From assembly GCA_964383685.1 (NCBI GenBank), contig CAYLJH010000001.1, positions 2,806 through 33,467 of the forward strand: 30,662 bases of DNA, in the 5' to 3' direction. Below the pieces are notes generated by a model. That model searched no databases and was not told the origin of the DNA. It worked only from the letters and a program-made list of their open reading frames with translations. The position numbers were made by a program, and so were the translations under genes. Below, in pieces: positions 4,004 to 12,679 of the stretch (position 1 is the stretch's first letter; every line of letters begins with the position of its first letter). The stretch is from an uncultured Candidatus Bathyarchaeia archaeon (lineage in GTDB: Archaea; Thermoproteota; Bathyarchaeia; TCS64).

Positions 4004-4465
4004 ATGTACGATATAAAGGACCTCGTAGAGTGCTCAGAAGACGTAGTTGAGTACATCGAGGCAAGCAAGGAAAACGCGCCCAAATTCATGGAGCAGTACG
4101 AGGCATACAAGCTTGAGTGGGAGGCAGCTACCAAAATCAAGTGCCACGCCGACAAGTACACGGTGTTTGCATTCAGCGCGGAATGGTGCCCCGATTGTTA
4201 CAGGAATATCCCCATCCTTGCTCAGATTCAGGAGAGGACTGGGTTGAAGACCCGTGTCTTCGGTCACCTGAAGAGGGACGCCAAGAACCCAAACAACCTG
4301 TGGGCATGTCCACCAAGCCCTGTGCAGGTTAACGAGTTCAAGGTAGTCAAGATACCCCACATGTTTATCGTGAACAAAGAGGGAGAGGTCGAGGGGGAAA
4401 TAATCGAGAACCCTCCTGAGGGCAAGCTCCTGGAAAGGGCGATCCTTGAGATCCTCGAATCCTAG
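4004..4465 (+). CDS. Thioredoxin-family protein
   Basis: WCPDC active site; cis-Pro-like KIP segment. Confidence 0.85.
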   Translation: MYDIKDLVECSEDVVEYIEASKENAPKFMEQYEAYKLEWEAATKIKCHADKYTVFAFSAEWCPDCYRNIPILAQIQERTGLKTRVFGHLKRDAKNPNNLWACPPSPVQVNEFKVVKIPHMFIVNKEGEVEGEIIENPPEGKLLERAILEILES

Positions 4466-4498
4466 ACTTTTTTATACCAACCACCCTATTCCTGAAAC

Positions 4499-5062
4499 AT
4501 GATCCAGCTTAGCCCAGGCACCGTCCTGTACGTTTTCACCGCCAAGGACGGCAGGGAGGTTATCCTCAGAACCCCCAAGTGGGAGGACCTAGATGACGCC
4601 CTTGAGTTCATCAACAGCCTCGTCGAGGAGGATGCTATGATCCTCATGAACACCAAAAAGACCAGGGAGCAAGAGATTGACTGGCTCGCGGATAACTTGA
4701 AAAAACTTGAGAAGGGAAAGATTATCATGATCGCCGCCGAGGTCGATGGGCGAATGGTTGGAATCGTTGAAGTCAGACCTCACTTTGGAAAGATGAGCCA
4801 CGTTGGAAGCCTCGGGATCTCAATCAAGAAGGAGTACCGAGACATTGGCATCGGTTTTGACCTCATGAAGGAGGCTGAGAAACACGCCATCCACATGAGG
4901 CTCAAAACCATGCAACTAGAAGTTTTCGAAAAGAATGAGCGAGCCATCCATGTCTATGAGAAAATGGGCTACAAAATAACAGGAAAGATTCCCGAAGGCG
5001 TCCTTCAAAACGAAGAGTATATGGACGTCTTGATCATGACGAGAAAACTCCCCTCATCGTAA
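4499..5062 (+). CDS. GNAT-family N-acetyltransferase
   Basis: ISIKKEYRDIGIG acetyl-CoA motif A; NERAIHVYEKMGY. Confidence 0.88.
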   Translation: MIQLSPGTVLYVFTAKDGREVILRTPKWEDLDDALEFINSLVEEDAMILMNTKKTREQEIDWLADNLKKLEKGKIIMIAAEVDGRMVGIVEVRPHFGKMSHVGSLGISIKKEYRDIGIGFDLMKEAEKHAIHMRLKTMQLEVFEKNERAIHVYEKMGYKITGKIPEGVLQNEEYMDVLIMTRKLPSS

Positions 5063-5111
5063 TCAGGACGGTTTCAGATACCTTATTAAATAAACTAATA
5101 CTTTGTAGATT

Positions 5112-5179
5112 GGAGATAGGGATGAGTGTGTATCACTTGGACTGGACGGGTTCCTCCTAAGCGAGGAAACTGATTTTTG
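5112..5179 (+). ncRNA. Candidate small transcript (C/D-box-like sRNA or 12-aa sORF)
   Basis: TATA-like ttattaaa about 5083-5090; GATGA 5121-5125 and CTGA 5170-5173; hairpin TTCCTC/GAGGAA; T-tract 5174-5178. Confidence 0.3.
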
Positions 5180-5248
5180 TAAACCCCCTAGCTCGTACGC
5201 CGGCACTGTAAACCGTTATAGTGCTGTCCATACAAGAGGCGAACAACA

Positions 5249-6385
5249 ATGACAGATAAACCAAAACAGGAAATGGTAGTGACTCCCTGGGAGGTCAAGG
5301 GTGACATCGACTACGACAAGCTCATAGTGCAGTTTGGGGTATCGAGTATGACACCTGAGATCGAGGACAAGATTGCAGAGCACGCCGGATACAAGCACCT
5401 CCAGCTGAGGAGAGGCGTATACCTGAGCCACAGGGACACGGGGTGGTGGATCAAGGAGTACGAGAAGGGAAACAAGGTAGGGCTCTACACGGGCAGGGGG
5501 CCCTCGGGAAACGTACACCTGGGCCACCTGGTTCCATGGTTCTTCTGTGCATACCTCCAGAAGGCGTTCGATGCCGACATGTACTTCCAGATGACGGATG
5601 ATGAAAAATTCCTCCACAGGAGCGACTTGACGCTTGAACAGGCAGTGGGATTCACCTACGAGAACGCGCTGGATGTAATCGCCTGTGGGCTGGACCCGAA
5701 GAAGACGCATATCTTCAGCGACACGGAGGACATCGGGCACCTGTACAAGATCGCGCTGAGGGTCGCCAAGAGGATCACGTTCAGCACGGCGAAGGCTGTT
5801 TTCGGCCTGAATGACAGCGATAACATAGGTAAGATCTGGTATCCGGCCATGCAGGCCATGACCTGCTTCCTCGAATCTGACAGGGAGGGAAGGAACATCC
5901 CGTGCCTGATTCCGGCGGCCATCGACCAGGACCCATACTGGAGGGTAACAAGGGACATCGCCCAGAAACTCGGGTACTACAAGCCTGCCCAGATACACGC
6001 AAAGTTCCTGCCGGGGCTTGCGGAGGGCGGAAAGATGAGCGCGAGCCAGCCGGAGACAGCTATATTCACCACTGACCTGCCCAAGGTGGCGGGAAAGAAG
6101 GTCATGAGGGCTTTCACGGGGGGTAGGGACACCGTCGAGGAGCAGCGCAAGCTGGGCGGCAGGCCCGAGATATGCAACGTCTACGCTTACTTCTACTTCC
6201 TATTCGAGGACGACGACGTGGCACTGGTGGAGAGGGAGACGTCCTGCAAGAACGGTGAGATTCTCTGCGGTCATTGCAAGAACGAGCTGTCCAAGAGGGT
6301 TGAAGCGTTCCTAACTGACTTCCAGGAGAAACGGGAGGCGGCTAGAGAGGTTCTCGACGAGTTCCTCATCAAGCCCGTGGAGTGA
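5249..6385 (+). CDS. trpS: Tryptophanyl-tRNA synthetase, archaeal/eukaryote type (canonical copy)
   Basis: YTGRGPS..HLGH (HIGH), QMTDDEK, IDQDPY, KMSAS (KMSKS), AFTGGRDTVEEQRKLGG anticodon region. Confidence 0.95.
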   Translation: MTDKPKQEMVVTPWEVKGDIDYDKLIVQFGVSSMTPEIEDKIAEHAGYKHLQLRRGVYLSHRDTGWWIKEYEKGNKVGLYTGRGPSGNVHLGHLVPWFFCAYLQKAFDADMYFQMTDDEKFLHRSDLTLEQAVGFTYENALDVIACGLDPKKTHIFSDTEDIGHLYKIALRVAKRITFSTAKAVFGLNDSDNIGKIWYPAMQAMTCFLESDREGRNIPCLIPAAIDQDPYWRVTRDIAQKLGYYKPAQIHAKFLPGLAEGGKMSASQPETAIFTTDLPKVAGKKVMRAFTGGRDTVEEQRKLGGRPEICNVYAYFYFLFEDDDVALVERETSCKNGEILCGHCKNELSKRVEAFLTDFQEKREAAREVLDEFLIKPVE

Positions 6386-6386
6386 G

Positions 6387-7478
6387 GTGTATCAGGTTAT
6401 TGTGGCCAATAAAGCAGTCCTCACCCCATGGGAAGTCTCGGGCAAGATAGACTACCATCACCTCATCGAGAAGTTCGGCACAAAAACGCTCAACCAGAGT
6501 GACCTAGATCGAATGAGGGATCACTCAGGGCGGCTTCATTTCATGCTACGCAGGGGAGTTTTCTACTCGCACCGTGACCTGGACAAGGTCCTTGACCATC
6601 ATGACAGGGGCGGCAAGTTCGCGTTGTACACGGGCAGGGGGCCCTCGGGGCCCGTTCACCTTGGACACCTCGTCCCATGGATGTTCACGAAGCACCTTCA
6701 GGACACTTACGGCAGTAAGCTGCTGTTCCAGTTCACGGACGACGAGAAGATGCTCCTCAGGGAGGATTTTGATGAGACGATTACCAACCACTGGGTACAC
6801 GAGAACGCGTTGGACCTGATGGCGCTTGGTTTTGACCCTGACAACACTGAGTTCATCGTGAACATGAGGCACACCTCAAAGTTGTTCCCCATCGCCCTCA
6901 AGGTGGCCAAGAAGATCACAGGGTCTACGCTGCGGGCTGTCTTCGGGTTCAACGACCAGTCAAACCTCGGGATGATGTTCTTCCCGTCGATGCAGGCGGC
7001 GCCTTGCTTCCTTGAATCGGAGAGGGCGGGCGAACCGGTTCCCTGCCTGGTACCCGCGGGGATCGACCAGGACCCATACTGGAGACTGACGAGGGATATA
7101 GCTAGGAAGCTTGGATACCCAAAGCCCGCCCAGATTCACGGGAGGATGCTGCCAGGGCTCACGGGGAACGCCAAGATGTCATCAAGCCAACCGGAGACGG
7201 CTATTTACATGACTGATGTGCCGGAGCTCGTGGAGAAGAAGATAGAGTATGCCAATGTTCCCGAGGATAGAGTGAACTGTCCACTCTTCCAGTCCCATTA
7301 CTTCCTGCTGACCGAGTCAGACGAGGAGGTTGAGTGGCTCCGCGAGGAGTGTGTTGCGAACCGCAAGTCATGTCAGGAGTGTAAGATGGAGCTATCGGAG
7401 GATGTCAACCGGTTCCTCAAGGCCCACAGGAGGCGCAAGAGGCTCATCAGGAAGAGCGTGGAGAGGATGCTAGAATAA
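6387..7478 (+). CDS. Second TrpRS paralogue with remodelled anticodon-binding domain
   Basis: GTG start 1 nt after the trpS stop. YTGRGPS..HLGH, QFTDDEK, QAAPCF, IDQDPY and KMSSS are intact; the AFTGGR...GG segment is absent. Confidence 0.9.
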   Translation: MYQVIVANKAVLTPWEVSGKIDYHHLIEKFGTKTLNQSDLDRMRDHSGRLHFMLRRGVFYSHRDLDKVLDHHDRGGKFALYTGRGPSGPVHLGHLVPWMFTKHLQDTYGSKLLFQFTDDEKMLLREDFDETITNHWVHENALDLMALGFDPDNTEFIVNMRHTSKLFPIALKVAKKITGSTLRAVFGFNDQSNLGMMFFPSMQAAPCFLESERAGEPVPCLVPAGIDQDPYWRLTRDIARKLGYPKPAQIHGRMLPGLTGNAKMSSSQPETAIYMTDVPELVEKKIEYANVPEDRVNCPLFQSHYFLLTESDEEVEWLREECVANRKSCQECKMELSEDVNRFLKAHRRRKRLIRKSVERMLE

Positions 7479-10714: not shown

Positions 10715-11049
10715 CCCTCTCTTTTTACAAGTATCCCGCTCTGGGTGTACGAGTTGAGGTAGCTCAGCACGGTCTCCACCTCATCGTCGGTGCAGCCGAC
10801 GAGGATCTTTATCTCTGTATCGGATTTCAGCAGGTCGATTGTGATTATTACCCCGACCACCGCTTTATGATCCATGCTCCCGCGCCAGACATCGATGCCT
10901 GAGCCGTCTCCTCCACTCGTTCCGTCGAGGTAACCGTAATCCAGCGGGTATATCGACTCGGGGAACCTTGGATGCGATGATCCCTCTGGCCTGTCGATTA
11001 CGATCCTGTGCTTTCCGACCAGCTCGTCCAACGCCTCCCAGAAGCCCAT
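10711..11049 (-). CDS. Small inorganic-pyrophosphatase-like protein
   Basis: IDRPEGSSHPRF, YPLDYGYL and DGSGIDVW resemble family I PPase motifs; about 112 aa. Confidence 0.7.
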   Translation of the reverse strand: MGFWEALDELVGKHRIVIDRPEGSSHPRFPESIYPLDYGYLDGTSGGDGSGIDVWRGSMDHKAVVGVIITIDLLKSDTEIKILVGCTDDEVETVLSYLNSYTQSGILVKREG

Positions 11050-11097
11050 GGTGTTCACAGTCTCATTGATATCTCACCTTTACATCATTTTCTCATC

Positions 11098-12060
11098 ATG
11101 AGCCTCCCAGATGAGCTTCGCGCCCTGTACACCAAGCAGAAGTACGGGCTCGTGGGCAGCCACAGCGCGGTGAAGACCTGCCACTGGCAGAGCAGGAGCC
11201 TGAACACAAGGGGGAAGGAGAACTGCTACAAGAACAGGTTCTACGGGATACCCACCCACCGGTGCCTGCAGATGACGCCCGGCGTGGGGCACTGCACCCA
11301 GAGCTGCCTGTTCTGCTGGAGGGCGACGCCTGAGACCCTCGGGGTGGGCTGGGAGCAGACGCAGCCAATTGAATCTCCGGAGGACCCTGAGAGTATTATC
11401 GACGGCTGCATCGAGGTGCACCGGAAGCAGATGTCGGGGTTCGGAGGTAACCCAAACGTGGACAGGGAGATGTGGAAGGAGGCGTGTGACCCGATTCATG
11501 CGGCAATCAGCCTTGAGGGGGAACCAACCCTTTACCCTCGGATCGGGGAGATGGTGGCTGCCTACAAGTCGAGGGGCTTCAAGTCGGTGTTCATCGTGAC
11601 AAACGGGACAAAACCCGAGGTTCTCTCAGAGCTGGGCACTGAGCCGACCCAGCTGTACATCAGCCTCTGCGCACCGGACAGGGAGACCTATGAGAGGACG
11701 TGCCGGCCCATGATCCCCAACGCGTGGGAGAAGTTGATGGAGACCCTTGAGCTGCTTAACAGCTTCAGCTGCCCCACAGTCCTGAGGCACACACTTGTCC
11801 CGAAGCTGAACATGCATAACGCCGAGGGGTACGGCAAGCTGGCGGAGCTGAGTAACGCGACGTATATGGAGCCCAAGGGGGCCATGAGCGTGGGCGGGGC
11901 CAGGGCGCGTTTCAGCTACAAGGAGATGGCGTGGTTCCACGAGATCCAGGGGTTCGCCGCTGATATAGCGGAGGCGTCCAGCTACGGCGTCATAGACGAG
12001 CACGAGCCCAGCAACATCGTGCTCCTGAGCCGCCTTGACAGGGCAGTCAAGCTATACTAA
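11098..12060 (+). CDS. taw1: 4-demethylwyosine synthase (Taw1/TYW1 radical SAM)
   Basis: HSAVKTCHW, CYKNRFYGIPTHRCLQMTP, CTQSCLFC radical-SAM motif, ISLEGEPTLYP; start at MSLPDE. Confidence 0.93.
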   Translation: MSLPDELRALYTKQKYGLVGSHSAVKTCHWQSRSLNTRGKENCYKNRFYGIPTHRCLQMTPGVGHCTQSCLFCWRATPETLGVGWEQTQPIESPEDPESIIDGCIEVHRKQMSGFGGNPNVDREMWKEACDPIHAAISLEGEPTLYPRIGEMVAAYKSRGFKSVFIVTNGTKPEVLSELGTEPTQLYISLCAPDRETYERTCRPMIPNAWEKLMETLELLNSFSCPTVLRHTLVPKLNMHNAEGYGKLAELSNATYMEPKGAMSVGGARARFSYKEMAWFHEIQGFAADIAEASSYGVIDEHEPSNIVLLSRLDRAVKLY

Positions 12061-12605: not shown

Positions 12606-12679
12606 GCGTTCGTGGTATAGTGGTAGAATATTAGCCTTCCAAGCTAATGACCCGGGTTCGAGTCCCGGCGGACGCACCA
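12606..12679 (+). tRNA. tRNA-Gly(TCC), CCA encoded
   Basis: Acceptor GCGTTCG/CGGACGC, anticodon arm TTAGC-CTTCCAA-GCTAA, T-arm CCGGG-TTCGAGT-CCCGG, 3' ACCA; upstream ccttttat TATA-like box. Confidence 0.96.

Follow-up and report, generated by a model that had tools for sequence, protein, structure and literature searches.

We analysed a 30,662-nt stretch of DNA from an uncultured Candidatus Bathyarchaeia archaeon (contig CAYLJH010000001.1, positions 2,806 to 33,467; hereafter the window), in which two tryptophanyl-tRNA synthetase (TrpRS) genes lie head to tail. Each has its own open reading frame (ORF), in a different frame from the other, and a stop codon followed by 16 nt of spacer keeps the two apart. 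The first, trpS1 (copy 1; 5249..6385, + strand), encodes a canonical archaeal-type TrpRS of 378 aa with an intact anticodon loop, AFTGGRDTVEEQRKLGG. The second, trpS2 (copy 2; 6402..7478, + strand), encodes a 358-aa TrpRS paralogue from a conserved GTG start, with the catalytic residues kept and most of the anticodon pocket lost. Pairwise alignment of the two gives 46% identity over 364 residues (E 1e-119) with a single internal gap of 12 residues, which bears out an earlier sequence-only reading of this DNA as two full-length, diverged TrpRS genes in tandem.

That reading had also placed the two genes 1 nt apart (TGA-G-GTG). The ORFs are as it gave them, the longest ORF of copy 2 being 6387..7478 (+ strand, 363 aa), and residue numbers of copy 2 are counted here from the 6387 start; the 1-nt spacing, however, is probably an artefact of ORF calling. 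In 17 related loci the junction of copy 2 reads ...GAG TGA GGTG, followed by 8-9 nt and then TATT GTG GCn. Since the first GTG (6387) runs straight into an in-frame stop in several loci (L002, L011, L019, L003, L075 and L020), the conserved GTG within TATTGTGGC, at window position 6402, is almost certainly the true start. The Shine-Dalgarno (SD) sequence of trpS2, GGAG-TGA-GGTG (6379..6389, + strand), covers the last codon and the stop of trpS1, and this junction is kept in the 17 loci. The 378-aa copy 1 of derived paired genomes ends in ..KPVE, the PVE codons carrying the SD sequence of copy 2, whereas single-copy relatives of copy 1 end in ..IMK. In all junctions compared the start of copy 2 is a weak GTG. 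Taken together, the 16-nt spacer, the SD sequence over the stop of copy 1 and the weak GTG argue for co-transcription of copy 2 with trpS1, and copy 2 is probably translationally coupled to it as well.

Both copies match PF00579 and TIGR00233 (trpS), the latter above its cut-off of 176.75 (216 for copy 2). For NF008927, the closest NCBIfam equivalog, with a cut-off of 478, copy 1 scores 489 while copy 2 falls below at 412. Among solved structures copy 2 is best matched by P. horikoshii TrpRS (3jxe, E 4.5e-91), and an AlphaFold2 (AF2) model of copy 2 (predicted local distance difference test, pLDDT, 82.6; predicted template-modelling score, pTM, 0.84) has the TrpRS fold, with a template-modelling (TM) score of 0.85 to 3jxe.

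Individual sites were compared across 134 sequences of the copy 1 clade (A), 140 other canonical sequences and 60 sequences of the copy 2 clade (B), 50 of these being derived members; 274 canonical archaeal TrpRS formed the reference set for conserved sites. The catalytic and Trp-pocket residues are invariant across all three groups. Copy 2 carries HLGH and KMSSS, and HxGH and KMSxS are invariant or nearly so in the 60 clade members. All of the Trp-pocket residues Tyr159, Gln194, Glu199, Lys200, Gln284 and Gln313 (human numbering; roles from PMC2275098) are present in it, and their conservation in the clade is 100% except at position 200, which is Lys or Arg. The residues invariant in the 60 sequences are Tyr159, GRG, HxGH, Gln194, Thr196, Asp198, Glu199, Gln284, Asp312, Gln313 and KMSxS. 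Contacts to the acceptor end and backbone are kept in the copy 2 clade too (Asp99 92%, Arg or Lys at position 106 94%, Thr259 100%, Ser261 98%), as are further contacts on the acceptor side (Phe267-Gly268 100%, Arg321 100%, Lys326 90% or more). The earlier claim that copy 2 is catalytically intact, made from HLGH, KMSSS and the Trp-pocket motifs, is therefore upheld, every quoted motif being present as quoted.

Copy 1 likewise has HLGH, KMSAS and the whole Trp pocket, 100% conserved in the 134 A-clade sequences. Its QAAP motif, which adjoins the Trp-binding Gln284, is altered (YPAMQAMTCF, window 5840-5869). Outside the copy 1 clade the Pro of QAAP is found throughout, in 100% of the 140 other archaeal TrpRS and in every copy 2 sequence; QAMT or QMMV replaces QAAP in one sub-lineage of copy 1, in paired and single-copy genomes alike. 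We considered a tie between this change and copy 2 and rejected it, as the change is a trait of the sub-lineage irrespective of the presence of copy 2.

Anticodon domain of the second copy

The 12-residue gap appears where KKVMRAFTGGRDTVEEQRKLGGRPEIC of copy 1 aligns with KKIEYANVPEDRVNC of copy 2, and a similar gap is seen against P. horikoshii 3jxe. In place of the 21-residue AFTGGRDTVEEQRKLGGRPEI of copy 1, copy 2 has the eroded loop ANVPEDRVN (A289-N297; 7251..7277, + strand) and no helix alpha11: in the AF2 model a helix at 279-287 leads through a short loop to a helix at 299-308, with alpha11 absent. The anticodon pocket of human TrpRS, as seen in its complex with tRNA, is built from helices alpha10, alpha11 and alpha14, with CCA enclosed by the alpha10-alpha11 loop; C34 is read by Arg381, Ile384, His387, Leu426, Thr427 and Gly428, C35 by Ser378, Gly380, Arg381 and Lys431, and A36 by Phe377, Ser378 and Asp382 (PMC1538984). 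The segment missing from copy 2, which had been assigned to the anticodon-binding domain, does match the alpha10-alpha11 loop plus alpha11 that wraps the anticodon in this complex (PMC1538984).

Copy 1 is canonical at all anticodon positions (AFTGGRDTVEEQR plus LCGHCK). In copy 2, Phe377, Gly379, Gly380, Arg381, Asp382, Ile384 and His387 are absent or changed, all of them 98-100% conserved in the 274 canonical sequences, as are Leu426 and Gly428. The replacement of GEILCGHCK by NRKSCQECK, as pointed out earlier, does amount to Leu426 -> Ser and Gly428 -> Gln in SCQECK (human numbering), but the cysteines and the lysine, equivalent to Lys431, are unchanged. Gly380 and Gly428, which contribute main-chain reading of C34 and C35, have many different replacements across the copy 2 clade. 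More generally, nearly all sites that are near-invariant in canonical TrpRS but variable or deleted in derived B members lie in the anticodon pocket (Gly291, Gly292, Gln299, Gly303, Tyr314, Gly336 and Gly341 in copy 1 numbering). Mean pairwise identity in derived B members is 0.30 for the loop and 0.69 for the rest of the protein, compared with 0.79 and 0.79 in canonical sequences. A short loop is not a common feature of single-copy archaeal TrpRS, being found in 0/274 of the canonical sequences aligned. One further element had been taken as special to copy 2, its strongly basic tail. This does not hold, as P. horikoshii has EHQRRRKKAEK at the same place; the basic C-terminal tail is, on this comparison, ancestral.

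The copy 2 clade itself preserves several stages of this loss. Its basal members P0045, P0048 and L015 still have the full loop AF(A/T)GGR.TVKEQRELGG together with Gly428; P0043, P0047, P0041, P0044 and P0049 have intermediate loops of differing lengths; and the derived members are left with a minimal linker of 8-9 residues and variable sequence. Intact basal, mixed intermediate and minimal derived loops point to relaxed constraint after duplication rather than to a single adaptive redesign, and by this alignment the loop is one that decayed stepwise, differently in each sub-lineage.

Not everything in the domain is gone. A C-x23-C-x6-C-x2-C motif is present in both copies, and its four cysteines are conserved in 100% of the 50 derived copy 2 members. 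In copy 2 it reads Cys298-x23-Cys322-x6-Cys329-x2-Cys332-Lys333 (7278..7385, + strand), a [4Fe-4S]-type motif retained along with the Lys431 equivalent. The pattern C-x(21-24)-C-x6-C-x2-C binds a [4Fe-4S] cluster in the anticodon-binding domain of T. maritima TrpRS, and a contact of this cluster with position 34, or with an anticodon that is modified, was suggested by Han et al. (PMC2954223). The T. maritima enzyme (2g36) shares the motif and its location with the Bathyarchaeia pair, in which a cluster is putative, but it is of bacterial type whereas the pair is of archaeal type. Furthermore, Han et al. found the motif in only one copy in organisms with several TrpRS (PMC2954223), in contrast to the Bathyarchaeia pair, where both copies have it. 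Lys333 of copy 2, the Lys431 equivalent, is kept in 98% of derived members and 59/60 clade members, and Thr occupies the Ser378 position in 80% of derived members, the window copy having Val. The claim that copy 2 lacks the anticodon-recognition elements is thus correct for the loop and alpha11, which are lost, and for most contacts, which are lost or changed, but not for the Thr, the Lys431 equivalent or the four cysteines.

These retained residues bear on the main rival of the reading preferred below, in which copy 2 acts on its own as a homodimeric TrpRS that reads the anticodon in a simpler, bacterial-like way and is used as a back-up or for a tRNA-Trp that copy 1 handles poorly (e.g. one with modified C34). 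C35 would then be read through the Thr and Lys equivalents, and perhaps the Fe-S site, with C34 and A36 unread. The persistence of Thr despite a loop identity of only 30%, of the lysine and of all four cysteines would fit such an enzyme, as would the cluster's proposed position near the anticodon; moreover, bacterial TrpRS has no helix alpha11 and was proposed to read mainly C35, by Thr222 and Lys269 (PMC1538984). We nevertheless consider this rather unlikely. The window copy itself has Val instead of Thr, the loop varies in sequence and length between sub-lineages in the manner of drift rather than of a new recognition surface, and Gly380 and Gly428 gave way to no single residue. Mutants of human Lys431 alone cost ~290-790-fold, so an enzyme lacking most of the pocket should be poor. 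In addition, a free-standing enzyme would leave the strict adjacency to copy 1 (see below) without a reason, and a scan of the window and 23 related loci for a dedicated tRNA gave only tRNA-Pro(CGG) and tRNA-Gly(UCC), with neither a second tRNA-Trp nor an unusual tRNA close by.

Distribution, descent and selection

The nearest species representative is the metagenome-assembled genome SI048_bin30 (Bathyarchaeia), with amino-acid identities of 93% for copy 1 and 91% for copy 2. Copy 2 has ~50 relatives at the 90% cluster level, with 57-93% identity, after which identity drops to ~52% for ordinary TrpRS. A neighbour-joining tree of 124 sequences recovers the clades of copy 2 (B) and copy 1 (A), both with 100/100 bootstrap support, and A also holds single-copy genomes. 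Copy 2 is therefore not strain-specific: its ~50 clusters form one clade within Bathyarchaeia. It falls within a group of Bathyarchaeia-like TrpRS (support 96-98/100), but the position of B relative to A and other Bathyarchaeia TrpRS has ~50% support, so that the tree cannot separate tandem duplication from transfer within the class. Since L015 and L013 are basal in both A and B, this matching topology together with the constant adjacency of the genes favours an old tandem duplication of trpS in a Bathyarchaeia lineage as the origin of copy 2.

Copy 1 lies directly upstream of copy 2 in 24/24 loci with readable upstream DNA, L018 excepted (the window, L001-L004, L011, L013-L017, L019-L022, L024, L075, L097, L099-L101, L103, L104 and L106). 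The complete 2.3-Mb genome CP070784.1 is among the paired loci, and roughly 40% of the 121 A-clade clusters look paired, as inferred from the ..KPVE end signature. The locus L018 was the sole candidate for a genome with copy 2 only. On this 3.3-kb contig just the last ~35 nt of copy 1 and the SD sequence precede copy 2 (1-310), and its first 258 nt match no other locus; the short contig may be chimeric, or copy 1 may really have been deleted, which would leave copy 2 by itself at this locus, and we do not count it as such a genome.

Loss or inactivation of copy 2 is frequent. The close relatives L096 (83% to copy 1), L098 (74%) and L105 keep the gene order but have no copy 2. In L001 (10082-10084), and likewise in L099-L102, an in-frame TGA interrupts copy 2 at about codon 23 (VVE-stop-FG) with the rest intact, and a region of ~190 nt around it is identical in the five independent assemblies. 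This TGA may reflect recent inactivation or the use of an internal start. Recoding of UGA to Trp was rejected: copy 1 ends in TGA, and the TGA of this lineage aligns with Gln, Lys or Arg, not Trp. In L106 (~4790-4805) a frameshift near codon 222 of copy 2, with the frame intact on both sides, may mark a real pseudogene or an assembly error. On its distribution, then, copy 2 is an old gene, vertically kept, always tied to copy 1 and dispensable.

Branches in B are ~1.7x longer, and copy 2 has evolved ~1.7-2x faster than copy 1. We estimated the ratio of nonsynonymous to synonymous substitution rates (dN/dS) by the Nei-Gojobori method. For the window against L004 it was 0.074 for copy 2 and 0.062 for copy 1; for L019 against L003 it was 0.172 and 0.089, respectively. 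For distant copy 2 pairs, in which synonymous sites are saturated, dN/dS is still 0.28 or less. The close-pair values of 0.07-0.17 are far below 1 and indicate that copy 2 is under purifying selection.

These data also speak to the idea that copy 2 has no productive catalysis and is either a slowly decaying linked duplicate or a regulatory 'poison' subunit that cuts the number of active tRNA sites in TrpRS dimers. Its faster evolution, the repeated losses in relatives of unchanged gene order, the in-frame TGA in one lineage (5 assemblies) and the L106 frameshift would all suit it. We consider it very unlikely, though: dN/dS stays at 0.07-0.2 across divergences with saturated synonymous sites, and the catalytic residues are all invariant in 60 sequences of 57-93% identity, which together make neutral decay incompatible with the data, while a poison subunit would not need an intact active site.

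Possible roles of the second copy

In the human enzyme each tRNA is shared between the two TrpRS subunits, one taking the acceptor end and the other the anticodon (PMC1538984). Binding of this kind, across the dimer, is general for class Ic synthetases, to which both copies belong, the acceptor end reaching the active site of the subunit that does not hold the anticodon. Our preferred reading, to which we give somewhat less than an even chance, is that copy 2 is an accessory TrpRS paralogue that forms a heterodimer with copy 1 and borrows its anticodon domain. A TrpRS1:TrpRS2 heterodimer would be the working form of copy 2: copy 1 would supply the anticodon domain that grips tRNA-Trp, and copy 2 the active site in which this tRNA is charged. 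Such cross-subunit binding would make the anticodon loop of copy 2 dispensable while leaving its catalytic core under purifying selection. Copy 1, being fully competent, would also work as a homodimer, which would explain why copy 2 can be lost.

Four features lead us to this reading: the active site and acceptor platform are under selection, the anticodon pocket has been freed from it, the gene has a fixed place behind copy 1, and its translation is probably coupled. Fixed adjacency is typical for subunits of one complex, and the constant position of copy 2 behind copy 1 with a conserved SD sequence and GTG was counted in favour of the heterodimer on that ground. The inter-subunit salt bridge of P. 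horikoshii TrpRS, Lys178-Glu185, has equivalents in copy 1 (Lys182/Asp189) and copy 2 (Arg183/Asp190), so nothing obvious blocks cross-dimerisation. Where copy 1 differs from copy 2 at clade-specific columns, its residues do not vary between paired and single genomes, which speaks neither for nor against a co-adapted dimer interface.

Several observations weigh against a heterodimer. Copy 1 has undergone no complementary decay, its active site being 100% conserved, and it works without copy 2 in L096, L098 and L105; what a heterodimer would gain over the homodimer is left unexplained, and the frequent loss or inactivation of copy 2 counts on the same side. Likewise unexplained are the conserved Thr at the Ser378 position and the Lys431 equivalent, which are unexpected in an idle anticodon domain unless they are structural or serve the Fe-S site. 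Finally, Lys102, a residue linked to reading of the discriminator base, is Lys or Arg in only 50% of derived copy 2 members, a relaxation that makes full use of the copy 2 acceptor platform less likely and that the heterodimer does not account for either.

The relaxed Lys102 would be easier to understand if copy 2 activated Trp or an analogue for an acceptor other than tRNA-Trp, such as another RNA, a carrier protein or a small molecule (compare MshC, amino acid:carrier-protein ligases and GluQRS). An intact adenylation site combined with a decayed anticodon pocket is what one would expect of such an enzyme, and there are clade-fixed substitutions beside the active-site motifs, Met195 -> Phe in 50/50 derived members and AIDQ -> GIDQ in 98%. 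However, residues that contact only the acceptor stem or CCA, away from the adenylate, are conserved (Thr259, Ser261, Arg321, Lys326 and Arg or Lys at position 106), and the direct Trp ligands are all unchanged. Nor is there a carrier protein, non-ribosomal peptide synthetase (NRPS), cyclodipeptide synthase or other biosynthetic gene nearby, and single-copy trpS has the same neighbours. We therefore judge this role to be improbable. A related proposal, that copy 2 is no longer a tRNA-Trp(CCA) synthetase at all and, with positions 34 and 36 unread, transfers Trp to a tRNA with an NCA anticodon, to another RNA or to a non-RNA acceptor, would make it a new archaeal enzyme derived from an aminoacyl-tRNA synthetase and strikes us as comparably doubtful.

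Leader, neighbouring genes and related systems

Upstream of copy 1 lies a conserved 5' leader (window 5080-5248). A TATA-box-like element, ACCTTATTAAAT (5080..5091, + strand), is a putative part of the trpS operon promoter; an A/T-rich box is conserved upstream of the leader in the aligned loci. An upstream ORF (uORF) of 12 codons follows (5122..5160, + strand), encoding MSVYHLDWTGSS before its stop, with its own GGAG SD sequence (5112-5115) and an invariant Trp codon (TGG, 5143-5145). Its consensus is MSVYH(L/S)DW..SS-stop over 12-13 codons, the single Trp codon being invariant. The first 24 nt are identical in 21 loci and the window, genomes without copy 2 included, where TrpRS itself is only 63-93% identical. 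The frame is kept across 3-nt indels, and the in-frame stops TAA, TAG and TGA all occur. The kept frame, the three different stop codons and the invariant Trp codon point to translation of the uORF, and the frozen synonymous sites imply a constraint at the RNA level too. A hairpin, TTCCTC-CTAAGC-GAGGAA (5151..5168, + strand), holds the uORF stop in its loop and is followed by TTTTT (5174-5178); a second hairpin lies at 5203-5224. The CCUC/GAGG hairpin was predicted in 17/18 unique leaders folded, the L013 segment being incomplete, and 84% of cells in its alignment are paired. Covariation was not above shuffled controls, leaving sequence conservation as its support, and the leader had no Rfam match. 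The leader may sense the supply of Trp-tRNA, in a form of leader-peptide control of an archaeal synthetase operon.

The neighbouring genes encode a PhoU/MazE-domain protein, a metallophosphoesterase, a thioredoxin-like protein, a GNAT protein, a cupin, a short-chain dehydrogenase/reductase (SDR) and an M32 peptidase. On these genes we rejected a biosynthetic or defence context; no nitric oxide synthase (NOS) or biosynthetic genes are near. Directly upstream of trpS1 are the genes for the thioredoxin-like protein (PF14595) and the GNAT acetyltransferase (window 4004-5062). The order thioredoxin-GNAT-trpS recurs across deep divergences of this Bathyarchaeia group in L013, L015, L096-L099, L103, L104 and L106, whereas L105 lacks the two genes. 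Nearly every locus whose upstream DNA reaches far enough has them, whether copy 2 is present or absent, and the order is therefore not linked to copy 2. The two tRNA genes, tRNA-Pro(CGG) (1903-1979) and tRNA-Gly(UCC) (12606-12679), also stand in a conserved gene order, as does, ~3.5 kb downstream, the gene for a radical-SAM protein with a wyosine-formation domain, a Taw1-like tRNA modification enzyme (window 11008-12060).

Compared with canonical TrpRS (P. horikoshii 3jxe and human), copy 2 shares the fold, the N-terminal PW hairpin, HxGH, KMSxS, the Trp pocket, an AIDQ-type motif, the Lys431 equivalent and the basic C-terminal helix. It differs in the missing helix alpha11 and most of the loop, in the replaced Leu426 and Gly428, and in scoring below the NF008927 cut-off. 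The closest parallel to a heterodimer is the tyrosyl-tRNA synthetase (TyrRS) pseudo-dimer of trypanosomatids (Leishmania major, T. brucei), another duplicated class Ic enzyme in which the anticodon domain of the active copy is disabled by a short deletion, six residues in the catalytically active half of the Leishmania protein, and whose function relies on cross-subunit tRNA binding (PMC8319005). There, however, a single polypeptide carries both copies and KMSKS is gone from the second of them, the one that is not active, making the asymmetry complete, whereas the Bathyarchaeia TrpRS are two separate ORFs, copy 1 keeps everything and copy 2 is dispensable. As a heterodimer, the pair would be a two-gene, half-finished version of that pseudo-dimer. 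Heterodimers of a paralogue with a dimeric housekeeping synthetase are described for Anabaena ThrRS T1/T2 and SLIMP-SerRS, but these are class II enzymes and their asymmetry lies in metal dependence or loss of catalysis, not in the anticodon loop.

A second TrpRS beside the housekeeping gene is also known from D. radiodurans (TrpRS II, a NOS partner) and from Streptomyces (indolmycin-resistant TrpRS) (PMC9437257). These auxiliary enzymes are divergent bacterial-type proteins (~30% identity; PMC9437257), separately regulated and linked to NOS or to antibiotic production, none of which applies to copy 2, and unlike copy 2 they have no reported loss of anticodon-binding elements. A profile search of 1.84 billion representative proteins showed that the FTGG loop is missing from other TrpRS-like sequences as well; with the exception of one fragment of the B clade, these have no Cys motif and look eukaryotic. 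One of them, P0242 (793 aa), is a double-length eukaryote-like TrpRS with asymmetric decay. Its N-terminal half keeps HxGH and the anticodon loop and has no KMSxS, and its C-terminal half keeps KMSSS but neither HIGH nor TDDEK, its anticodon loop being eroded. The FTGG loop is likewise missing from several eukaryote-like TrpRS paralogues of single length.

Duplicated synthetases are common. The duplicate TrpRS known from reviews and the literature are the NOS-associated TrpRS II, the indolmycin-resistant TrpRS and the two TrpRS pairs of candidate phyla radiation (CPR) bacteria; the reviews and literature searched describe no archaeal tandem TrpRS pair. Equally undescribed there is a conserved paralogue in archaea whose catalytic site is retained and whose anticodon pocket can be seen to decay stage by stage. 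Should the heterodimer be wrong and copy 2 act alone, there are two options: it would activate Trp for a new acceptor, or it would be a TrpRS whose anticodon reading is relaxed, and the latter would be useful to those engineering the genetic code. If the heterodimer is real, the pair would be a natural intermediate on the way to an asymmetric pseudo-dimer of the trypanosomatid TyrRS type, its halves still separate and one of them self-sufficient, and, with intact, half-eroded and fully eroded loops in living lineages, it would open the way to direct tests of how asymmetry evolves in class Ic synthetases.

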